NCBI RefSeq assembly: GCF_900634775.1
Contig: NC_041064.1
Coordinates: 1,444,717 to 1,508,716, forward strand
Source of the DNA: Gouania willdenowi
Lineage: Eukaryota
Direction of reading: 5' to 3'
DNA: 64,000 nt
The notes under the pieces were generated by a model, which was not told the DNA's origin, searched no databases, and saw only the letters and a list, made by a program, of their open reading frames with translations. The position numbers and the translations under genes are program-made. Below, one piece after another: positions 11,493-55,689 of this stretch. Every line of letters begins with the position of its first letter. Position 1 is the first letter of the stretch.

Positions 11493-11784
11493 GGTACCAA
11501 TCACACTGAGAGAAAAACCTCCCAATTATATGATGCCAAACTCCAATGACCCTTAATTTAGGTTAATTATTTGCAAGTCTCTAATTAATTAGATAACTTT
11601 TTTATTTGATTCCCACCAATAATAATATGTAATGTATTATAATTTCTTCTGAAGGGCAGGTGATGATGATTATGTAATGTGATGTCTTCCCTCTTCCATT
11701 CCTTTCTCACCAGTTTTTTGTCACTAATCCAGACATTGATCGTCTTCGCTTTCCCTCCTGAATCCTTTGCTTCCTCAGGTCAAC

Positions 11785-28563: not shown

Positions 28564-31099
28564 GTAAGAGTGTGTGTGCGTGTGTGTGTGTGGCGCTTCT
28601 AAATTCATGCGCACCAGTCCAGCGAACTCGTACCCGTGGTCCTGCACGTCTGATTTACATTTCCCATAGACTTAGAATGGGTAGACGGGCACAATGCACA
28701 AGCATGTGTGCTTGCAGACATGTTAACATGCTTGCAGACGTGCCCACACATACGCCACACTGGGCACAAATGGATGTACACCTAATAAACATAAATATAT
28801 CAGTCACACGTAGACACAGGTGTGGCGTGAGTGAAGCTATAGCGATCAGGTGACCTTCACTATCAATAACCGTCTACGTGACATGTAAACACTTGGAAAA
28901 AATTGTTACGCACTTAAGCGTGCAGGCGTGTACACGTGTGCAGGTATGTAAGTGTGTGTGTGAGTATATAACAGATCACCATTTAGTCTGGTTACAGTCT
29001 GTGTCACTACACCCGTTCATAGAGTGGTAGTGACTGTAGTGCTACGCTCTGAGTCAGATCATTGCTGTGATTGGACAGAATACAACACTTACTGACGTGC
29101 ATGTGTGTAAGTGCGTAACAATGATTTCTTAGTGTTTACATGTCATGTAGACGGTGCTACATAGTGAAGGTCACCTGATCACTATAGCTTCACTCATGCC
29201 ACACCTGCCACTACACCTAACCACGTAAATTAGGTAAGTTTAGTGAAAGTTAGGCAGGCAGGTACGCGTGTTGGACTGGTGCACATGAATTTAGAAGCGA
29301 TCCATCCCCCGTAGTGTGCGCGTGTGCGTTCTAGGGATGCAACAATGCAGTCAGCCCACGGTTCAATATGTACCTCGTTTTTTGGTCACGGTTTGGCTCT
29401 GATGGTCCAGGCCGTTACAGTGTTTGCAGTGAAATAAAACCATCATTGTGCTACATTTAAAATTTTCTACATTTGTGACGTCACAAGTAAAATTGGGAAT
29501 CATTGTTGCCAGATCAGATCTTAGAACCCGCCCATTCCAATAAAAACAGCCCAAACACGAACCACGAATCTGGCAACACTTGTGTTTGTTACACAATGCG
29601 ACGAAGTGGTTTCCCAAAACAGCGGACTATTGAATGGACTATTCCTGTAATCTCTACATGAGATGATGACAATAAAGCAACGTAGCACTTCCGGTAAGTG
29701 TTTGAAGCAGCTGACTCAGCTGCTTTTGCTGTTGAAGATGCTGTTGCTGCACGGTGCATACACTTCATAAAACTGTGTTTTTCTGACTCAATCTCTGCTT
29801 AAATATCCATGTGTTTTACTGTGAAGTGTAGTTTTTTGGCTGAAAACAACGAGTGTGTGAATAGCAAAAGAAAGTCGCTAGTGATCAACTGCTGTGTGGA
29901 GTCCACGTCTATAGACACGCCCACTCAAACAGTCCGGTTTTAAAAGTGGTCAGAAAGTGACTTTTCAGAGACTAAAACTCTGGAAAACAGGTGAGTTTGG
30001 GAAAATAAACCTCAAATACTAGGTTGTTGGGGTTCTTAGAACAAATGGAGATGGGTAAAAAATAACATTTGTCCCATTTAAACCGTTTTATTTTACGTTG
30101 AAGCAAAATCAAATTCATACACATTCCTGTATATAGTGTATTTTATGATATAAAACAAACACAACTTCATAAAATACATATAAAATAACACTTCCAAAGG
30201 ACAAGTGCTTAACCCTGGCAGTCCATATACAAACTAAGGAAATATTCATTAAAAAATAAAATAAAAAACAAACAAAAAATTCACTACTTTAAATAAATAA
30301 ACCTGTACTTCAGTAAACCTGGCCATTTATTTAGTAACATGGATCCAGTGCCATACCAAAAGTACATAATGTTGTGAGCGTCACCAAACTTTAGCGCGTT
30401 GTGATTGGCTTATTAACTCACTTGGTGGGTTTTCCTTACCCTGGCTGAGCAGTAGTAACCAATGAGCTTTGCCTAAAATCTCATTTACTTGCCAGGCTTG
30501 AAACTCACAGAGATAAATACAGGTGACACATGTAGAGTTAAATACTGCTTCACTTGATAACTTTTGGTATTAAATGAACCATCTTTAAATGTTTATTTTC
30601 ACTGAAACATTGAGACAAATGTACAGTAAGTGTTGCAGAGAGGATTTTATTTAAGAAGCTGCAGATTTTTGTGAAATATTACACAATAATTTAATGTACA
30701 AATGTTACATGCTTTACGAGTGGTTAAAAAGTTGTTAGTGGCTAGTAAAATAGGGACAATGATTTCCTTTGAAATTTAATGAAAGTAAAACAATTTCTTG
30801 AATGAAGAAAAAAAAAGTAATAGTAATAATTCAGTACGTTTGAAGTAGCTCGCAGTTTCAGAAAGGTTGGTGACACTATTAGTGCTGTCAAGAGATTAAA
30901 AAATTGGTACGATTAATTAATTACGCTCTGTAATTAACTAATCTATTCTTTAATCGCACCTAAATATTGCAGAGAAACGCCCTCAACTTGAGGTATTCAT
31001 TTAAATTACATTATTGTGGCAGATAAAAAGATTGGTATATAACAAAGTGGCTTTATGAAGTAATTTATTGTTTTTAACAAAGTTCCTCTGAATGTGAGA

Positions 31100-31925
31100 C
31101 TCGTCCCGAGGGCTGCTGACGTCTTTAGTTCAGACCATCAGGGAATTATTTGTGTACTTTAGTCAATCTACACATAATAGAATACAGTATACAAATGAAA
31201 TAAAACATCAGGACTTATTCATTTTTGCTCTGAACCCTGTCATCTTGTCAAGTTTGGCAACACGGCGTGCTTGGAGCATGTTGGAGTTAGCACTACCGAG
31301 CTGTCCATGCTAGCTGCTACATGTTTAGCATTGAGGTGCTATCTGCTGCATGTTTAGCATTGAGGTGATAGCTGGTACATGTTTAGCATTGAGGTGCTAG
31401 CTGCTACATGTTTAGCATTGAGGTGCTAGCTGCTACATGTTTAGCATTGAGGTGCTAGCTGCTACATGTTTAGCATTGAGGTGCTATCTGCTACAAGTTT
31501 AGCATTGAGGTGTTAGCTGCTACATGTTTAGCATTGAGGTGCTAGCTGCGCCATATTTAGCATTGAGGTGCTAGCTGCTACATATTTAGCATTGAGGTGC
31601 TAGCTGCTACATATTTAGCATTGAGGTGCTTGCGGAGGCTGCAAAGCCTCGGTCGTTGACAAACTTGTACTTGCTTGATTTGCACACAACGAGGCCTGTG
31701 TTTTCCATCCAATGTTTTTATAAGCCAAAATTAACGCAAACAAAGCTGAGAAGCTTGGTAGTCTTCTGTCTGTGCATCAGTATAATGGGTATACCGGGAA
31801 CTCTTGAAATGAAAAAGGTTCTGCGCTGTTAAGAGTGTTAAAAAAAATTGATTAACAGCATTATATTTTTAGCGCGTTATTTTTTCCTGTAATTAATTAA
31901 TCACAATTAACGTGTTAAAGTGACA
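31100..31925 (-). mobile_element. Repeat element carrying a 33-bp minisatellite (copy A; inverted relative to copy B at 37770-38700)
   Basis: 31300-31640 holds ~10 units of 'gctagctgctacatgtttagcattgaggt'. 31640-31925 is the reverse complement of 37770-38080 ('...ctgtaattaattaat(c/t)a(c/t)aattaacgtgttaaag...'). Confidence 0.6.
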
Positions 31926-32124
31926 GCCCTTGAGCCTAAACTGTAAAAACTGCAGTTCACGTGTCTGTATTGAACCGTGGAGGCCGTACTGAACGGTTTA
32001 TTATGTTATTGAGAATCATTGCATAGTGTGTTCACATGTGAGCAGAGAAACTGAAATGGTTTGAGCTGTTTTTTCTCCTGCATGTCCTCGGACGACCAAT
32101 AAAATGTATTATTATTATTATTAG

Positions 32125-32262
32125 AGGACGGACTGTAAGGCGGTGCTCAGCGTGCTTCCTGGAGCCGTCCTCGGCCCCGACGGTTTCCAGCTGTCCATCA
32201 CTCTGTCAGATGTCCACCTTCCTAGGATGTGGGTGGAGAAACACCCAGAGAAGGACAGCCAG
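32125..32262 (+). CDS. parp4: PARP4 exon 20
   Basis: 'RTDCKAVLSVLPGAVLGPDGFQLSITLSDVHLPRMWVEKHPEKDSQ' versus the remembered human 'RTDCKAVISTMEGSSLDSSGFSLHIGLSAAYLPRMWVEKHPEKESE' (recalled, not checked). Confidence 0.8.
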
Positions 32263-32341
32263 GTCTGAGCCTCCTCTTCCTCCTCATCTTCCTCTCAGAG
32301 CCCACCCTGTGTTCTGATTCATCCTGTCTCCCCCCCCGTAG

Positions 32342-32531
32342 GCCTGCATGTTGGTGTTCTACCCAGACTTTGAGTCCAGTTCCAGCGCAGACAGCAGTGA
32401 GGTGGTTCTCCTGTTGGACGTGTCTCAGTCCATGAGAGGAGAACCTCTAAGAACCGCTCAGAGAGTTGCTCTGCTCGTGCTCAACAACCTCCACCACAAC
32501 ACCAGAGTCAACGTCATCCAGTTCAGCACAG
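32342..32531 (+). CDS. parp4: PARP4 exon 21 (vWA domain start)
   Basis: 'ACMLVFYPDFESSSSADSSEVVLLLDVSQSMRGEPLRTAQRVALLVLNNLHHNTRVNVIQFST' versus the remembered human 'ACMLVFQPD...VIICLDCSSSMEG...KQKVNIIQFGT' (recalled, not checked). Donor 'g|gtaggg', phase 1. Confidence 0.8.
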
Positions 32532-32869
32532 GTAGGGGGCGACCAGGAGTCTGTACTCAGACTGTAATGCTGGTTTTTAAAAAGCTATTGTTTTTAAAAT
32601 GAAAGAAAGAAAATCTTTATTGTTTGCAGTGACAGAAAGTCACGTCACTTGTGCAACACATTGACACATAAGGAAGTTTAAGGATAATTCTAAAAAGCAT
32701 TCTAAAGTGTTGGAGATTATTTATGAACTATTGTTCGTTTAAAGGGATCCTCCACTTTGTTTACTAGTTTGGCCTAAAATCTTCTCAATGTTCTTATGTA
32801 CTTACCTATGTCTAACAAAACACATTATTATGCACCAAATTAATTTAAATTTTCTTTTAAAAATAGAAC

Positions 32870-33870
32870 CTCACATTCTGCTGACCAGGCATTAAACCAG
32901 CTTGAAGGAATGTGAATTATTAACGACCCTGTCTCAAATGATCACCGTTGCATTCTCTGCTCAGGAACAAAGATGTTGTGATTGGTTTGATTTAGTGATG
33001 AATCAATCAGAGCTTAAAGATCTGTTTCTAACTAAACACATTATTGTGTATTAAAAATAGGACTACTTTACAGTTTTAGAGCCTGTGTTCCTCCATCCTG
33101 GAATCACATGATTGATGATGTCACACAGCCTCACTGCCTGTAAACATCCCATTGTTTTTTATTGGACTGAAACATTCAGCCTGATTTATAGATCATTTAA
33201 CAACTTTTTAGATCATTTAGAAGCTTCTTCAATCACAACTTGTGCTGCGTTTAATTGCTCTAAAAAAAGTAATCACAGCCTGTTGAAGACACACAAACCC
33301 TGGGGATAGAAGTCCTTTTGAGTGGGAGTCGTGATTACTCATTAACTTGCGCCACCAGAGCGTGTCAGCGTACTGTTTAAGGGAGATTAAAGGCCCCTTA
33401 GGAGAGCTTTTCTTCTGTTTCATTGTCTACTACCAAACCTCAGAGTTGCAACTGCCGCGCCCTGTGGTCACAACTGTTTTTATCCTCTTTCTATAAACAA
33501 AAGGTTTACAACAACATATTTAACTTTTCCTGATTATTTAGAGCAACCAAAAGCAGCACAAGTTATTATTGTGACTGAAAAATCTACTAAATGATCTATA
33601 AATCTGCTAAATGATCTATAAATCAGGCTGAATGTTTCACTCCAATAGAAAACAATGGGATGTTTACAGGCAGTGGGGTCGTGTGACATCATCAGTCACA
33701 TGATTTTAAGATGGAGGAACACAGGCTCTAAAACTGTAAAGTAGTCCCATTTTTAAGGAAATTAAATTAATAGGGTACATAATAATGTGTTTTGTTAGAC
33801 ATAGATCTACTAATAGGGACATTTAGAAGATTTTAGGCAAAACTTGTAGAAATGTTAAGGGATCCTTTAA
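32870..33870. mobile_element. Near-palindromic MITE (copy 2, same family as 27015-27900)
   Basis: 32880-33170 is ~90% identical to 27015-27300. An internal inverted arm at 33640-33760 pairs with 33060-33170. Confidence 0.6.
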
Positions 33871-33987
33871 GATGTTAATATGCTGTAAATGTTCTTCTTT
33901 CTCGTTTGGGTGGATTTGTCACTTATGATCTCCTCTGGTTTCGAACACTGTCCAAATGAGCTCCTTTTGTCTTTGCTTTCCTTTAAG

Positions 33988-34058
33988 TCTACAGAGAAGC
34001 CTTCCTGACAACTCGACCAATAGCAGAGGCCCGTCAGAAAGCGGAGCGCTTCATCAGG
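33988..34058 (+). CDS. parp4: PARP4 exon 22 (vWA)
   Basis: '(V)YREAFLTTRPIAEARQKAERFIR' versus the remembered human '(G)YKELFSYPKHITSNTMAAEFIMS' (recalled, not checked). Donor 'agg|gtgagt'. Confidence 0.6.
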
Positions 34059-35980
34059 GTGAGTCAGGGCTCCTCCTATTGGTTGATGAAGTTACCTTCA
34101 TCGTTGGACTTCTGAGCTACTCTGACTGTGGGTTTGTGATTCCTCTTTGTTTTAACACATGTTGTCAGTATGTCTGTGCTGAGAGGGATCAGCCGCCCTC
34201 CTGTTTCCACTCAGGTGTGCCTATCTTCAGATTACCTTCCTTCAGCATTTAAAAACGTGCTTGGACAGTGTTGTTGGTTTCTGTCTGGATGTGTTCTTTG
34301 TTGGTTTGAGTTTGAACTTCTCTCAGCTTGTTTCTACTTATTTGGACTTTATTTTGATCTCTACAATTCATTAAAATGGCTTTATTATTATTTTTTTTTT
34401 TTTTTTTTGTTTTTTTTTTTTTCTCTTGTCTGCACATTCTGTCGAAGGTTAACACTACAAGAAGTGCAATCTTTTAACAGCAATGCATATTTTGTTATTG
34501 CAATTAAATAAATTTATTTATTTCATTGCATAATTGTGACCATCACCAGCCCTCCCTAGGGAAGGGTAAGAAATACTTTATTAAAGGGAGGATGTAAAAA
34601 AAGAGAGGGCAGTGTTACACCAAGGTGAGGGGGTGGAGGGGGGTGGGGAAGTTAACAGGGAAGAGGAATACAAGATAGGAAATGGAATGGGTGGGGAGTA
34701 GTCGATAGGTTTCAAGTGATGCGATGTGAAATTGTGGTTGTGTATATTGTGCTTATCGTTATCAAGCCAGTTTGGTGACCAGTGTGCGGCTTAGGAATAA
34801 TGGTGGTGGCTGTGAACAGAGGAATGGCTTTATTAGATACTCGTGCCTGGTGTAGGTTGTGGCTCAGTGACTTTTCCACCTATGTCACATATGTTGAACC
34901 ATTATTGTCAGTTTTAACCTTTTTTCACCATATTTTATGATTCTTTTTGGCCAATTTAACCACATTCACTATTAGTCATGCTCATTGTTTTCCAGTTTAA
35001 GCTAATTTAAGCTAATTAAGCTAATACTTCAGGATCCTCATGTGAGCGTTCAGATAATTTTGACTAAATGGTTCCGACAAACCTCACAACCAAATGGTTA
35101 CTCAAGTGTTCCTGACTCTATCCCAACCTAAGGGCTTTTCTCATGTGGATTCTCATTTGAGTTTGTAGCCTTTGTAATGTAGCGCATGCTGCTGTTGGTT
35201 CTCCAACTTTGAAAATAACTGTTTTTCAGCATTGAAGGCAAACGAGCTGGGTTTTCATCACAGATTTTAGCAAAATAAAAGCGATTTTTCTGAATGTCAA
35301 CATATATTGTGCTTTGAACGTCTTTCCATTGCAGGTTGTTGTGGAGCCTGGTAACTCTGGTAAAATCTCATCTTTGCTGACTTTGCTGCATAAAGACAAA
35401 CGCTCCAAACCTCCTTAGAATACTCTGCATTCCTTTGTTGTTTCACGTCTATTGTGGCAGTAATAATTATTAGGTGTAATAAGAAATGTCTGGGTCTCCT
35501 CTTCTGTCCACACGTACCGTTCCATGTTTTCTTGGAGAGAAGGTTTGTCAGTTTTGTGACGTGTATTTGTGTAAAAAGTGTTTCCATGGCGCTTTTGCGT
35601 AACATTGCAATATCGAAACGTCTGAAAAACCTCCTTATGAAAGCGTAAAAAGTTTTTGCCGATATTTGAGTGTTTTCCAATTGCCCCATGGGGCTAATTA
35701 ACGTTTTTTCTGATTCTGATTTATTTTAAATTCAGGTGTTTACATTACTAGTTTTTATTGAGATATTTAGATTTTGTGCATTTTCAAGGGTAATGGAAAC
35801 ACAGCTATTGTCAGCGTGTTGTGATGCAGTTACCCTGAGGGAGAGGGACCATGGGTCAGTTAATGTCCTTACATGGCCCAGCCCTAGCTTGATGGATTTA
35901 AAATATTTGACAGTTTTCCATAGTTTTCCTCCTGTTTTGTGTCCTGTAGCTCATTAAGTTATGTTTCTCTCTGCTGTCAG

Positions 35981-36168
35981 CATCCTGTACTCTCATTGGA
36001 CAGCACTGAGCTGTGGCGGCCTCTGCGGGCCCTCAGCCTGCTCCCTCTGTCCCGCGGGGTCAGAAACTTGCTGCTGCTGTCGGACGGACACATCCAGAGC
36101 TCTGAGCTCACGCTGAGGCTGGTCAGAGAAAACCAGAGGCACAGTCGCCTGTTCTGCTGCGGCCTCAG
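35981..36168 (+). CDS. parp4: PARP4 exon 23 (vWA)
   Basis: 'HPVLSLDSTELWRPLRALSLLPLSRGVRNLLLLSDGHIQSSELTLRLVRENQRHSRLFCCGL' versus the remembered human 'TPTMGNTDFWKTLRYLSLLYPARGSRNIFLVSDGHLQDESLTLQLVKRSRPHTRLFACGI' (recalled, not checked). Confidence 0.75.
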
Positions 36169-36239
36169 GTCAGCACACACACCTCAGCCACAGCTCTACC
36201 TGCAGGACGCCCGCGGTCTCACTTCTGATGTTCTTTCAG

Positions 36240-36339
36240 CCCCACGGCCAACCGGCACATGCTGAGGGCGCTGGCACAGGCGGGGGGCGGGGCCTGTGAG
36301 TTCTTCGACACAAAAGCTGAACACAACTGGAAGGAGAAG
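36240..36339 (+). CDS. parp4: PARP4 exon 24
   Basis: '(S)PTANRHMLRALAQAGGGACEFFDTKAEHNWKEK' versus the remembered human 'GSTANRHVLRILSQCGAGVFEYFNAKSKHSWRKQ' (recalled, not checked). Confidence 0.75.
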
Positions 36340-36589
36340 GTGAGAGTTATTTTCCTTGTGCTGTTTTTTTTTTCCTTTCTTTTTTTTTTCTCTTTTTCTT
36401 TTTTTTTTTACTTTGTCTGCTCTCACTGTCAAAGGTCAACACTACAACAACACTCCTTATGCTGTTTTTAAACTGTACTTGGCAAATAAAAACCTTTGTG
36501 ATTCTAAATGGGCTATAAAATACACTATTAATCATATTCATCAATTTGGCGACCCACTTGCTCAAAACAACATTATTTTAGCATAAGTT

Positions 36590-37110
36590 AGCATTGGCTA
36601 GCATTAACATTAATATACGTTAGCATTAGCTCGTTTTAGCATTAGCTCGTTTTAGCATTAGAATAAGTTAGCATTAAAGTTAGCATTAGCATTAACCTAG
36701 CAATAACGTTAGCATAAATTGGCATTAGTGTTAACATTAACATTAGTATCTAGCTAGCATTTACATTAGCCTAGCATTAGCATTGGCCTGATAACAGCAT
36801 TAGCATAAGTGTTAGCATTAACGTTAGCATAGGTTAGCATTAGCATTATCCTAGCAATAACATAATCTAGCTTTAGCTCTAACCTAGCATTAGCATATCA
36901 TTAGCCTAACGGTAGCATTAGCATATCATTAGCCTAACGGTAGCTTTAGCATATCATTAGCCTAACGGTAGCTTTAGCCTAACAATGCCAATAGTATAAG
37001 CGCCAACCTAGCATTAGTGCCAACCTAGCATTACCACTAACTTAGCATTAGCACTAACCTAACCTAGCATTAGCACCAACCTAGCATTAGCACCAACCTA
37101 GTATTAGCTG
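36590..37110. repeat. Satellite-like array of 'tagcattagc', 'gttagcat' and 'ctagcattagca' motifs
   Basis: Direct reading. About 500 bp. Related short arrays at 48790-49010. Confidence 0.8.
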
Positions 37111-37565
37111 AACATGAGTAATAAGGTTTAAAAAGGTTTTAGCTGAAAGTGTTCAGACAGCTAAACATGTTGAAGGTTGAAATCTGTTTAAAAAGTTGAA
37201 AATGTGAATGGGGAAATGAAAAATTAAAAAGTTAAATAATTGAAAAAGTTAGAAAGTTAGAAATAGCTAATACATAGCACAATGTCCAGAAATTATTTGA
37301 GCATTTTGACACCAAACTTGTTGCCTCCTGCATCCTCATTAATTACTCCATAATTGTAATTAATTACCAATTACAATTAAAATTGACCCCAATTCTACTG
37401 CCAAACATTTAGCCATAAATGAACTGAATTCCAAATCTAAAAGAATTCAGGTGCAAAGCTTTTTCTTCTAATAATGCACATTCCACCTTCTGCTCATACG
37501 AATATTTATTATACGATCTCTATGAAGCGTTGGTGTGAAAGCCGTGGTTGGGCGTCTGTGTGCAG

Positions 37566-37736
37566 GTGAGTGCTCAGGTGGAGCGCATGGCATCCGTGGG
37601 TTGTAGCTCAGTGTCAGTGAAGTGGCAACAGTTCAACTCTGAGGCAGCTCCTCCTCTCCAAGCTCCCAGTGCTCTGCAGGCGCTGTTCAACGACTCCCAC
37701 ACGCTGGTGTATGGCTTTGTGCCGCACTGCACTCAG
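37566..37736 (+). CDS. parp4: PARP4 exon 25
   Basis: 'VSAQVERMASVGCSSVSVKWQQFNSEAAPPLQAPSALQALFNDSHTLVYGFVPHCTQ' versus the remembered human 'IEDQMTRLCSPSCHSVSVKWQQLNPDAPEALQAP...LLVYGFIPHCTQ' (recalled, not checked). Confidence 0.8.
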
Positions 37737-37769
37737 GTACGCCTCCTACACTACAAACATGGGTTAGTA

Positions 37770-38700
37770 CTAGGGCTGGGCCTTTAACACGTTAATTATA
37801 ATTAATTAATTACAGAAAATTAACGTACTAAACAAAAAAACGCATTTTTTTCCACTCCAAACAGAGCAGAACTTTTCTTATTGCACGAGTTCCCGGTATA
37901 CCCATAATACTGATGCACAGACCACAACACAAGAAACAGGAGAACCAGAGGAGAAGTCGTTGCTGTGTTTTGTGGGCGTTAATTTTATTTTAAATAAAAA
38001 CACTGGATGGAAAACTAAAGCCCATCTGTGTGAAAATTGTTAGAGAAAGAGTTCGTGAATCAGAGCTCTGTTAGCCTCAGCTAGCACCTCAATGCTAAAC
38101 ATGTTGCAGCTTGCACCTCAATGCTAAACATGTAGCAGCTCGCACCTCAAAGCTAAATATTTAGCCGCTAGCAGCTAGCACCTTAATGTTAAACATGAAG
38201 CAGCCAGCACCTCAATGCTAAAGATGTAGCAACTAGCACCTCAATGCTAAACATGTAGCAACTAGCACCTCAATGCGAAATATATAGCAGCTAGCACCTC
38301 AAAGCTAAATATTTAGCAGCTAGTAGCTCAATGCTAACCACGTTGCAGCTAGCACCTCAATGTTAAACATTTAGCAGCTAGCACCTCAATGCTAACATGT
38401 AGCAGCTAACACCTCAAGGCTAACATGTTGCAGCTAACACCTCAGTGCTAACATGTAGCAGCTAGCACCTCAATGCTAACATGTTGCAGCTAACACCTCA
38501 ATGCTAACATGTTGCAGCTAACACCTCAGTGCTAACATGTAGCAGCTAGTACCTCAATGCTAACATGTAGCAGCTAGCAGGGACAATGGTCCTAGTGGAG
38601 CAGACAGTGTCTCCAATCTACACTGACACTCAGACAGGGTTCAGAACCAATAATAAATCCATGAGTAACAAATGAACAAAGTCAGTGATAAATGATTGTA
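37770..38700 (+). mobile_element. Repeat element carrying the 33-bp minisatellite (copy B, inverted relative to 31100-31925)
   Basis: Starts 'tagggctgggcctttaacacgttaatt'. 38080-38590 holds ~15 units of 'agctagcacctcaatgctaaacatgtagc'. Confidence 0.6.
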
Positions 38701-39575
38701 GTGACAGTCGACCACTCTGTGGTAGAGGATGTGGGCGGGGCTAGAAGCGCTGCTACAGATAGCATCGTCTGATCCAACTTATCAACTGTTATGTAGAAAA
38801 ACTATTTCAAACTAAATTCATCATCTTCATCAGTTGTTCTGTTTATTTCATGATATCCACAGATATTATAAATATTTTACACTGTTCAGTTTATATTTCT
38901 CTGGAATGTTCTGGAATAAGTGATTTTTCATTTTAGGCATTTTATTATTGCAGACTTTGTTAGGACTGATATGCCACTTATTGCTTGGATTTTGTCAGTT
39001 TTTTACATATTTTGTGCTTTATGTAAATGTAGAAGTGTAAACTAGGGCAATAATATTGAAACTAATTGTTTTCTGCATAAAATCTGTGGCCCACTTGAGA
39101 TCAAACTGCTCAGTAGCCCCTGGACTACATGAAGGGACATCATTCGACATTTGGCTCAATGCCCATTGTGCTTGTGTCGTCTGTTGCAGGGCAGTGATTC
39201 CCAAACTGGGGTACGTGTACCCCTAGGGGAACTTTACCACCTCTCAGGAGGTACACAGAAATATTTGTCAGTTTATTTTTTAACATTATAGATTTTTTTT
39301 TACATGCACACAGACTTTTTTTTCTCATCCATCAATAATAATCTGTTGTACAACTCTTTAAAATGCACCAAAAGTTGAAGTTCTAAAACGAGCAAAACAT
39401 CAGAAATAAATGAATAAAAAAGGCCTAAATTCAAGGTTAATGTTGGACGAGACACAGGAAAGAGTTTAGACGAGCCTGCAGACACTAATGATGTATAACA
39501 TGAGCTCAGGGGTACATGGGGCGATAAAGTTTGGGTAATTACTGGGTTTACTAAAGTTTCTCGTGGCTCCCACAG

Positions 39576-43566: not shown

Positions 43567-44844
43567 AGTCAATTCTCTCCTTTTCTCCATGAACCCAAGA
43601 TGAGGAGTCACAGTCTGTCAATACGTAAACCTTCTGAAGATTTGAGATTGTCAGATCAATGTCGGGAAGATGAGAGTGAGTCTTTGGGCAGCTCTATAAG
43701 GGATCCTGGTGAAGACTACATTGCTCCTCCTCTTCTAATGGCTGAAAGCTTGGCAGTCTTTGAAGCACCAGAGGAGGACGTGGACATGGATTATGATGAT
43801 ACCACTTTACTTTTTCCTACAGAGGATCATAGCAACTCTCACCTTGAAGTATCTAATGCAATCTCCACTACTGAATCTTCCATTCGCCGTACGAGGAGGA
43901 AGCTAAAAGATCTAGGAGTTTTACATTCTGCTGCTCCACCTGCATCTCCACCTCGTCTTCTCCCACAGTCATCGAGCTGTAACATTCTACAGAAATGTTC
44001 GTTTGATAGTTCAGTGACTTCATCTATAGATCAAGATTTTGCTGATCCACCTTCACCCACCTGGGTCTCCATTGGATCAGGCAAAGCTTTTGGAGGCATT
44101 CTGCCTCCACCTTGTCCTCCTCTTGGAGGTGCTCCTCCACCACCTCCACCCACTGGGTTCTCCTTTGGATCTGGCAGAGGTTTTGGAAGCGCTCTGGCTC
44201 CACCTTGTCCTCCTTTTGGAAGTGCTCTGGCTCCACCTTGTTTTCCTTTTGGAGGTGCTCCTCTACCACCTCCACCCACCGGGTTCTCCTTTGGATCTGG
44301 TGAAGGTTTTGGAAGCGCTCTGCCTCTATCTACACCTGGTCTTCTTTTTGGAGCCACTCCTCCACCACCTCCACCTACCGGGTTCTCCTTTGGATCTGGT
44401 GAAGGTTTTGGAAGCGCTCTGCCTCTATCTACACCTGGTCTTCTTTTTGGAGCCACTCCTCCACCACTTCCACCTACCGGGTTCTCCTTTGGATCTGGTG
44501 AAGGTTTTGGAAGCGCTCTGCCTCTATCTACACCTGGTCTTCTTTTTGGAGCCACTCCTCCACCACTTCCACCTACCAGTAAGAGTTTGCCTCAGCGTTT
44601 AAGATCTGTCTCTGAATTCTTCCGTCAAAGCAATGCATACCAACCGATGTCGGTAAATAGTCCATTAACAAAGACAAGGTTGAGCTGCAAACAAGTTGAT
44701 CAAAAAGAAACCGTTGTGGAGCTCCAGGGTTCAGAATCACCTAAAGCAATACAGTTCGACGGTGTTGAGAAGACAGCGTTCATCAGAGCCAGAAGAAATT
44801 GTCTAAAGACGTCCTTTAGAGGTTTGAGGGCCAAACAGGAGTGC
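43567..44844 (+). CDS. parp4: PARP4 large exon 30, Pro/Gly/Phe-rich repeat region (the 3' boundary could instead be 44861)
   Basis: Acceptor 'tttctgtttctttag'. A 426-codon open frame in phase with exon 29. Contains ~3 near-identical 108-nt repeats encoding 'TGFSFGSGEGFGSALPLSTPGLLFGATPPPLPP'. Candidate donors 'tgc|gtgagg' at 44845 and 'at|gtaagc' at 44862. Confidence 0.55.
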
Positions 44845-51841: not shown

Positions 51842-52320
51842 TATTAAACATAGGGCTGGGCGACATAGACAAAAACACATATCTCAGTATATTTCCTCCA
51901 AACAGCGATAAACGATATAAATGTTGATCATTTTAAATCAAATGACGTTCAACCAGAAAAACAGTTCAGGGTTAAATTTGTTGATGCAAACACAGGAAGA
52001 TTAAAAAACAGGAGTTTTGGTTGATTAATTACAGATAACTTGATGTGGGATGTCAAGTGTCTATGTTGTAAGATAAAGACATTTTTGATTGTACATTTTC
52101 AATATTAAATATTAACAGGTGGCCATATGGGCCAGTCAAGGTTTCTGTCAAATAAGCATCATATTTAGATATTTAGGTCCAGAACCTTAGAAATGTGTTT
52201 TTAATTCTAATAATGTGACTTTTGGTTGGCTAGGAACTGAAAAAACCTGTTTTTGGGTGGACGCCATTTTGAATTGTTCATTATGGCGACCCCTTTGAGA
52301 ATGATCAAAATAAGATGTAA

Positions 52321-52359
<39 letters not shown>

Positions 52360-52412
52360 ATAGGTAATATTGGAATTTTCTATATCACCATGATAGCCCA
52401 GCCCTATTTAAA
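51842..52412. mobile_element. hAT-like MITE (TIR 'TAGGGCTGGGCGA')
   Basis: 51842 'tagggctgggcgacatagac' versus 52385-52412 'gatagcccagccctat' (inverted). Includes (TA)n at 52325-52360. Confidence 0.5.
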
Positions 52413-53095: not shown

Positions 53096-55689
53096 CTGAC
53101 TGTAAAAGAGTCCAAACCAACCACACGAGACGTGACTACAGATGAACGTATGAATGTTGCAGTAGCTTTTATCATGGCCACATTGGAGGGGATGTGGGTG
53201 GGTGAACTGGTTCATTGTGTTTATTGCTAATCTAAATGTTTGCACTTAAATTCTTTATGTTTCATTGTAAAGATGATGTAATGCTTTGGGCCCTTATTCA
53301 CCTATTGCAGCTTTAATGGAATTTAAAAAAATAAAATGAGTATAATTGACTTTTTCTGTAGATTTTGTCATTTTTGTCCAAAGCGAGGGCTAAATATAGA
53401 ACATTGTGGTTTGTGGATCGGATTCACACAGACAAACACAGAAACAGGTTGTGTAGCTTCACCACAAATCTTCTGGTACTTGGTCTCTCACAGGGTTGAG
53501 GGTGTAGAGTTGCAGATTAAAGTTACTAAACTATAGGAAAGTCTTCACTTGACCATAGTTTTTCACCACAGATTTCATAGGACCTTAAGGTCACTCTGAA
53601 TAAAAAGGGAAGAAGCATTGTAAGAACAGGTCACGGTTTACAGAGTTCATTCTCTAATCTCACCACCTCCAGAATGACTTTTATGATATGGAAAAACCAA
53701 AGCCCAGGATCAGCACCAGACTTGCATCATTTATACTATGGTCGCTCAAGGTTGAGGCAGGTTCCCATAGTCTTTATTATCCTGTGCAGAGGAATCGTGT
53801 TCCATGTGCAGTCAGTACTGGTTGTGTCCTCCAGCCGCTCAGTCTGATCCTTTCTACCAGACTCACCACTGCCCTGGCTTAGGCCTGGACATCATCTGTC
53901 CGACCCAACGCAGTAAATCACTTTTCTTTTTACACTCACCTTTTGCTTATTTGTAACAACACACAGCCACACCCCCCAGCGGCAGGGCGGCCAATTGCAT
54001 AGTGAGGCGTTCCCTTCACCTAAGGGCCAGCCTCCGTGTCACGTTGACGGCATACCCCCGTGTAGGTCCTGACGCTGAACCTTAAACCAGGCTTTACTGA
54101 CACGCCTGCATGCCTAACAATTAAGTGTTTACATGTCACGCAGACGGCGCTACATCGTGAAGGTCACCTGATCACTATAGCTTCACTCACACCACACCTG
54201 CCACTACACCTAACTACTGACATTAGGTAAGTTTAGTGAAACTTAGACAGGTATACGTGTGTTAGACTGGTGTGTATGAATTTAGAAACGATCCACCCCC
54301 CATACTTACCTGAAGCTGCTGTGCTGCAGTACGTCATTGACCGTTACTTGCTGAAGGTCCAGACAACCCTCCAACAAAGGGAACCAGTCAAGTTCCTCCT
54401 CCAGATCCTCCCAAAGTTCCCACCAACACGGTGACAGAGAACAATTATGAACTGGTAAGTAAAGCTAACTAAACTAAGCTAATCCACCAACACACAGACT
54501 AGGCTCAGACTCAGAGCTAATGCTAACCACTCCATTTAAGGAATAGACCAATTAAAAAGTACACGTCATCAGCCTGATCTGGTGTAATTATAATAAATCA
54601 GAGATATTTATCAATCGTAGCTTTATGTACAGTAACTCATTATCAGATATAAAATAAACTTGATTCAGTAACAGTAAAAATTAGTTATTAATGCTTTTCA
54701 TGTGTTTTTTTTGGCACTGTCTACAGTTATTTTTATTGTATGTGTTAGTGATAAATTGTGTGAAGTTTCAGATCGATAAGACCAGATTCAGCAGAGATAT
54801 CATATTACATATTTACTGTTTCAGGGATTAAAATGGCGTTCTCGACCAGAGTTGAAGTCTAGCCACGCCCACACTGTGTGAGATATGGAAATACGATTAA
54901 GACCTATTGACTTGTCATCAGTTCTTCAGTGATGTGCACAGGTTTCAGGCCTCTGTGATGATTCCTCTTGGAGCTAGAAGCTAAAATGATGAATCTATTA
55001 AATTGGATTAAAAGACTTCTGTGTGTTTTCAAATATGGTTTCAAGAGACTTTTTTCTGTGTTTCTTAAGGATCCTATAAGTCTGTACATTTTGATCCATC
55101 CTGCAAATATGCTATAGTTTATTTCATGCACTGTTCATTGAATGTTCTGTACTAACCTCTGTTTTTTATTTATTTATGTTTTTATAAACAAAAACACACT
55201 TGTTTTAGAAAGTTTACAGAAATTCCAGAAAATCATAAATATAGTTTGATTAAATTTATATTAGTGCTTTGTGAACAATGCAATCAAAATATTTTTATTC
55301 ATATTACACATTATGTTATCACTCAGTAATGGAAATAATAAACAATATTTAACTGTTTAAGATTGTTTATTGTTCACTTGTGTCAAATAATGTTTCAACA
55401 TTTATTTAGATTAATTGAGATTAATAAATTACAAAGTCACTAATAAATTAGATTGACACCACTATAATATAAACTAATATCTTACCTATTATAGATCATA
55501 ATAGTGCTATTTTGTAGTAAAAGTTACATATTACATTTACTTGTGTTGCTGTAATTTAGTCAATTTTTAGTTTTCATAAAAAAAATTATAATTTTACTTC
55601 AGTTAATTTTTTTTGGAAGTTTTCTCTACATTTTAATTTGCATCTGTCACTGAGTAAAAATGTTGTTTATTATTGTCATATTTAGTGGT

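Follow-up and report, generated by a model that had tools for sequence, protein, structure and literature searches.

An inverted repeat around the vWA exons of parp4

The window analyzed here is a 64,000-nucleotide stretch of contig NC_041064.1 from the teleost Gouania willdenowi, in which two copies of a minisatellite-bearing repeat lie in opposite orientations on either side of six coding exons of the parp4 gene. The exons were located by tblastn with fish PARP4 fragments and assembled into a splice-site-consistent model, and the two copies, which are very probably the remains of one family of hAT DNA transposons, were delimited with the aid of related elements (L001-L004) found in other fish DNA. 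Array figures are those of Tandem Repeats Finder (TRF). The features are as follows.

30880-31931, minus strand (antisense to parp4): left copy, 1052 bp, very probably a complete non-autonomous hAT element, its two termini aligning with those of L001-L004
30880-31000, minus strand: 3′ terminal and AT-rich subterminal region of the left copy, aligning with the 3′ ends of L001-L004
31308-31630, minus strand: left minisatellite, 11 units of 29 bp (period 29, 11.1 copies, 93% matches)
31631-31931, minus strand: left unique 5′ part, comprising the terminal repeat, a subterminal ATTAATTAATTA region, the 5′ untranslated region (UTR) and the decayed start of a BED-finger reading frame; 79% identity to 37771-38077
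32125-32262, 32342-32531, 33988-34058, 35981-36168, 36240-36339 and 37566-37736, plus strand: the six parp4 coding exons between the copies
37771 to about 38836, plus strand (sense to parp4): right copy, very probably the 5′ fragment of a longer hAT element; its terminal repeat TAGGGCTGGGCC, at the 5′ end, aligns with the 5′ ends of the family
38078-38579, plus strand: right minisatellite, 17 units (period 29, 17.3 copies, 84% matches; also period 28, 14.4 copies)

The content of the exon block is established. The six exons total 858 nt, or 286 codons in phase 0, and are open throughout; they encode the end of the VIT region and the vWA domain. Their product matches the Pfam VWA families (VWA_3, E=4.9e-14), and its best relatives are the annotated PARP4 proteins of Plectropomus leopardus and Austrofundulus limnaeus.

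An initial annotation of this DNA had described two inverted, homologous, minisatellite-bearing copies around the six vWA exons, and this description was borne out by TRF, an inverted-repeat finder, BLAST, tblastn and Pfam. The tandem array at 31308-31630 has its reverse complement at 38078-38579, and the long inverted match within the window, which had been set beforehand as the test, was seen between the two arrays by the inverted-repeat finder, with lengths of up to 243 nt (84% identity) and 227 nt (89% identity). The unique parts adjoining the arrays are likewise homologous and inverted (31678-31930 versus 38037-37772; BLAST, E=1.8e-33), and pairwise alignment adds about 65 homologous bases distal to the array in both copies. 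The inverted repeat is real, with a match far better than chance would give, and no third copy of it was found by BLAST in the window. Several of the original figures nevertheless need amendment. The period, given as 33 bp, is 29 bp (the unit string quoted with it is itself 29 nt long); TRF and a unit-by-unit listing give 11 and 17 units instead of 10 on the left and 15 on the right; and the unique part of about 300 bp, put at 85-90% identity, is 79% identical across 287 ungapped columns with several indels, or 71% if gaps are counted. Both copies extend farther than was reported, the left one beyond 31300 to 30880 and the right one to about 38836, and the spacing of about 6 kb comes to 5.8 kb between the inner ends. 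The initial annotation did not recognize the copies as transposon relics.

Identification of the copies as hAT transposon relics

Where did these repeats come from? When metagenome contigs were scanned exactly with 23 nt of the repeat unit, one contig, L001, consisting of fish DNA, was returned. It contains an element whose open reading frame (ORF; MNDT...VVCKLCNKKFAYHRSTSSLKYHLNAKHVAAS...) matches Pfam zf-BED above the gathering score (E=2.7e-8). This ORF, used as a protein query, recovered a dozen BED peptides, short and likewise from fish DNA. Three of the contigs encoding them, which we designate L002-L004 and which include one from Merluccius polli, hold an element of this kind, in which the unit is present as a single copy. 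The coordinates of three of these elements are given below.

L001, 716-1682: 967-bp element whose terminal inverted repeats, TAGGGCCGGGACT, are 13 bp long and perfect; the 8-mers on its flanks, GTTTTTAT and TTTTTTAT, agree at seven of eight positions
L003, 639-1119: related non-autonomous hAT element in other fish DNA
L004, 2412-3354: related non-autonomous hAT element in other fish DNA

The sequence TAGGGCCGGGACT is present at both ends of L001, L003 and L004 (the family termini are also given as TAGGGCTG), and target duplications agree at all eight positions in L003 (ATTATTTT) and L004 (ATAATAAT) and at six of eight in L002. In an exhaustive search with P0040, we found five full-length relatives (P0063, P0086, P0087, P0102 and P0083) that possess both zf-BED and the C-terminal dimerization domain Dimer_Tnp_hAT; therefore, the family belongs to the hAT superfamily. 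It displays the features expected of such a family, namely 8-bp target duplications (in the relatives), terminal repeats of the (T/C)A(G/A)NG type, and descent from a transposase with a BED finger and a hAT dimerization domain. The 5′ ends of both window copies align with the family 5′ end from base 1. Decayed coding remnants are also recognizable, of the BED finger in both copies and of the post-BED region in the right copy, and no dimerization domain is left in the window. That the copies derive from a transposon is established by these alignments, and we are confident that both are old, immobile relics of one hAT family with a BED-zinc-finger transposase.

The 5′ end of the left copy lies at 31931, where the terminal repeat reads AAGGGCTGTCA (reverse complement), and the 3′ end lies at 30880, where it reads TAGTGCTGTCA. 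BED-finger peptides match it at 31599-31724 (tblastn), and its 3′ region matches L001 1588-1665 (BLAST). Because the family 5′ end and the family 3′ end are both present, the copy is regarded as complete; without the array it measures about 760 bp, and it contains no intact ORF. The flanking 8-mers, GACACTAT and GAGCCTAA, agree at five of eight positions, as a degraded target duplication. The motif AGGGCTG at 31109 was considered as the second terminal repeat, which would define an 822-bp element, and was rejected; it is the end at 30880 that aligns with the family 3′ ends. The right copy begins 35 nt downstream of the 5′ splice site at 37736/37737. Beyond its array, the sequence is colinear with the N-terminal region of the transposase (VVEDVG / GLEALLQIASSDPTYQLLCRKTISN), and residues 127-159 of the full-length hAT transposase P0063 match 38738-38836 (tblastn, E=3.3e-4); therefore, the right copy extends at least to 38836. 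It retains more of the transposase reading frame than the left copy does, about 160 decayed codons, and the two copies have different internal deletion or truncation points.

We propose that the two copies inserted independently, in opposite orientations, into two introns of the teleost parp4 gene. The left copy would be a complete internal-deletion derivative that lost the transposase but kept its two termini together with the 5′ UTR and the beginning of the reading frame. The unique parts are separated by a Jukes-Cantor distance of 0.245, and the copies are therefore old. No match to either element was found in the orthologous parp4 regions of Plectropomus leopardus (L007) and Goodea atripinnis (L006), where the six-exon block spans 2.2 kb and 2.9 kb, respectively, compared with 5.6 kb here; the Austrofundulus limnaeus locus (L005), where the mapping reached just two of the six exons, likewise gave no element match. 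Absent from the orthologous introns of the two other teleosts whose DNA was examined, the insertions are specific to this lineage and do not belong to the conserved features of parp4.

Some observations weigh against this account. The window copies are just about 70-80% identical to the external relatives, and the agreement of five in eight bases flanking the left copy would, taken alone, be expected by chance about 3% of the time. For the right copy, a 3′ terminus and a target duplication were sought downstream of 38665, and neither was found, so that its arrival by transposition would have to be read solely from its exact 5′ terminus. Moreover, the searches brought up no array-bearing copies beyond the window; they did not extend to Dfam, Repbase or the source species' genome. 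Exact scans with the conserved core GTTCCCGGTATACCCATWATACTG gave no match in the metagenome, prokaryotic genome or viral collections, nor did a scan of the prokaryotic genomes with the repeat unit, and a protein search for further copies in public assemblies, whose query was a spurious ORF spanning the unique part of the left copy, was equally negative. An origin from a short interspersed element (SINE) or a structured RNA was dropped because tRNA and Rfam scans of 30.5-39.5 kb detected no tRNA and a single sub-threshold match attributable to chance.

In the L001, L003 and L004 elements, the start codon and a BED-finger ORF of 82-142 residues are apparently intact, though without the transposase core. 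Elsewhere in the window, short relics at 11553-11625 and 55330-55480 match the 3′ subterminal region of the L001 family (83-84% over about 50 nt), which suggests that many fragments of this family were left in the genome.

Origin of the 29-bp minisatellite

The unit consensus, in the orientation of the element, is TAGCACCTCAATGCTAAACATGTAGCAGC and is identical in the two arrays. In L001, where the unit is present once, it is translated as H-L-N-A-K-H-V-A-A-S, the part of the BED finger with its second histidine pair. The minisatellite is an amplified piece of transposase coding sequence, and this origin of the unit is established. The internal order of the arrays differs: all eleven 29-bp units on the left are uniform, whereas the right array consists of ten units of 29 bp, of which one measures 36 bp, followed by seven 28-bp units with an 84-bp higher-order block duplication. 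The phase in which the array starts and ends is the same in both copies (...GCAGCTAGCA|[T/G]GGACA), and the amplification is therefore most likely older than either. Comparing these two copies, we consider that their arrays most likely share a common ancestry. In the proposed scenario, the 29-bp piece of the BED finger would have been amplified in tandem once, prior to both copies, inside an ancestral element that we take to have been already non-functional because 29 is not a multiple of 3. After insertion, slippage or unequal exchange would have acted on each array separately and produced the 11 versus 17 units, the 28-bp variant and the 84-bp block duplication.

The locus thus offers a clean, small example of a minisatellite born of transposase coding sequence, here that of the BED zinc finger's second half, and similar arrays rich in GCTAGC/TTAGCA in the introns of teleosts may have arisen in this way. 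Transposons as a source of tandem repeats have already been covered in reviews (PMC9659126), and the derivation of the unit from BED-finger coding sequence is the only detail here that is even mildly new. In the intron preceding the last enclosed exon, positions 36578-37110 hold a degenerate, complex array of TTAGCA / TTAGCATTAGC motifs, which has the motif TAGCA in common with the 29-bp unit; homology of this array to the hAT element was not shown.

Alternative explanations and possible activity of the inverted pair

The only activity that we would consider plausible for the pair concerns RNA: within the pre-mRNA, the arms would pair as an imperfect duplex of about 300 bp and juxtapose two splice sites, the 3′ one at 32125 and the 5′ one at 37736. 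Such a geometry of arms and splice sites is known to favor back-splicing and editing by ADAR. Cofolding of the two arrays gave -561 kcal/mol with 297 intermolecular pairs, compared with -111 and -146 kcal/mol (sum -257) for the arrays folded alone. The arrays gave a duplex energy of -505, shuffled partners averaging about -143, and the unique parts gave -255, their shuffled partners averaging -95; the 29-bp unit is itself partly self-complementary, the sense-sense control giving -248. Complementary sequences are therefore present in both flanking introns and are predicted to pair across the exons, as in a pair that promotes circular RNA (circRNA) formation. The long intronic RNA duplex foreseen in the initial annotation is thus upheld, by cofolding and by comparison with shuffled partners, on thermodynamic grounds only; on those grounds it is established. 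Such a duplex could promote back-splicing or adenosine-to-inosine editing.

Might the pair then have a different origin, or a function? It is scarcely credible that the copies came from one locus by local duplication in inverted orientation, or that they are simple repeats with no relation to each other and only a chance resemblance. Their distance of only about 6 kb within one gene would suit a duplication, but the homology begins exactly at the transposon terminus in both copies while the flanks are unrelated, the internal structures differ in their deletion end points, the E value of the unique part is far too low for chance resemblance, and both copies align to independent family members from other fish; these alignments already contradict such an origin. 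Only slightly less remote is the proposal, which extends a claim of the initial annotation, that the copies are a substrate for non-allelic homologous recombination and that the 5.8-kb segment with the vWA exons is inverted in some individuals. The inverted orientation and the 227-243 nt of array homology speak for it, as does the presence of hAT-derived repeat arrays at inversion breakpoints in Atlantic cod; the cod arrays, however, are long and highly similar (PMC12368964). The longest perfect inverted match between the arms here is 30 nt, the arrays being 84-89% and the unique parts 79% identical, far below the near-identity expected of such a substrate, hundreds of base pairs at roughly 95% or more. 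Efficient homologous recombination in vertebrate cells needs a few hundred bases of near-identity. With so short a perfect match and identities of 79-89%, inversion by homologous recombination would be unlikely, and the claim of a recombination substrate gains little from these data; an inversion would, moreover, destroy parp4 and therefore be selected against.

A functional role at the RNA level deserves somewhat more consideration, although we think it unlikely. Here, the arms would loop out the six vWA exons, yielding an 858-nt circRNA or else a transcript that lacks the vWA domain but stays in frame, and would form a site of ADAR editing. This idea draws on the strong predicted intermolecular duplex, on the position of the right copy 35 nt past the 5′ splice site and of the left copy, which ends 193 nt upstream of the 3′ splice site, on the phase-0 length of the enclosed exons, and on the lack of a competing copy elsewhere in the window; back-splicing through transposon dimers is also an established process (PMC8516420). 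On the other hand, any effect would be lineage-specific, given the absence of the insertions from the two other teleost orthologues; the copies decay at a seemingly neutral rate (79% identity, with indels); each array also folds on itself; and the dimers associated with circRNAs are mainly young elements (PMC8516420), whereas the copies here are old. More doubtful still is the fuller version, in which a lineage-specific hAT pair would give rise to an in-frame 858-nt vWA circRNA or a vWA-less linear isoform together with an ADAR hotspot that varies with minisatellite length between individuals. If the duplex did drive back-splicing, the locus would add to the circRNA loci, a phenomenon already known, that transposons have created in particular lineages. 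As relics of two hAT insertions, the pair most likely constitutes a neutral intronic passenger.

Relation to known elements

The window copies resemble non-autonomous hAT elements with a BED zinc finger, that is, internal-deletion derivatives of the Ac/Ds type, in their short terminal inverted repeats starting with TAGGG, the 8-bp target duplications of the family members, the AT-rich subterminal repeats, the remnant of a BED-finger N-terminus, and the hAT dimerization domain of the full-length relatives. They differ in that they hold a 29-bp array in former BED-finger coding sequence and are heavily decayed. MITEs (miniature inverted-repeat transposable elements) are usually shorter than about 600-800 bp, lack coding capacity and occur in high copy number; at about 1 kb, the window copies are longer than typical MITEs. 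Internal tandem repeats in such elements have precedents. In a teleost, the Atlantic cod, the hAT-derived non-autonomous element gadMor-hAT-1784 carries units of 167-169 bp that form long terminal repeats and lie at the breakpoints of megabase inversions (PMC12368964), and in the clam Donax trunculus, the MITE DTC84 contains tandem repeats (PMC3879986). Like these two, the window copies are non-autonomous DNA transposons with an internal short array whose copy number varies between copies; in contrast, the unit here is 29 bp long and comes from transposase coding sequence, and the likeness drawn here is one of organization. The inverted arrangement recalls the reverse-complementary Alu, B1 or ID dimers (PMC8516420), in which inverted copies of one family also occupy the introns bracketing an exon block, close to the splice sites and with a strong predicted duplex. 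Unlike those dimers, the present copies are DNA-transposon relics with minisatellite arms and not SINEs, are old and not young, and are known here from sequence alone.

The pair is therefore ordinary genome furniture and not a new kind of element. A conspicuous inverted repeat is explained as two transposon relics, which has little importance beyond annotation.

Other repeats in the window

Between the second and the third of the enclosed exons, the intron holds an additional inverted repeat of 188 nt (33051-33238 and 33569-33756; 89% complementary, with a 330-nt spacer), which probably represents either a further transposon whose terminal repeats are long or a pair of inverted copies. A separate MITE of the hAT type, about 556 bp long, occupies 51851-52406, with the ends TAGGGCTGGGCGAC... 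and ...GCCCAGCCCTA and with flanking 8-mers, ATTAAACA and TTTAAATA, that agree at six of eight positions; an (AT)18 microsatellite is situated inside it at 52320-52355. Finally, a 99-bp (33-codon) tandem repeat of 3.5 copies at 96% extends over 44047-44577 within a long open frame on the plus strand (PPPPPTGFSFGSGEGFGSALPLSTPGLLFGAT...), and looks like a coding Pro/Gly-rich repeat of a downstream parp4 exon.

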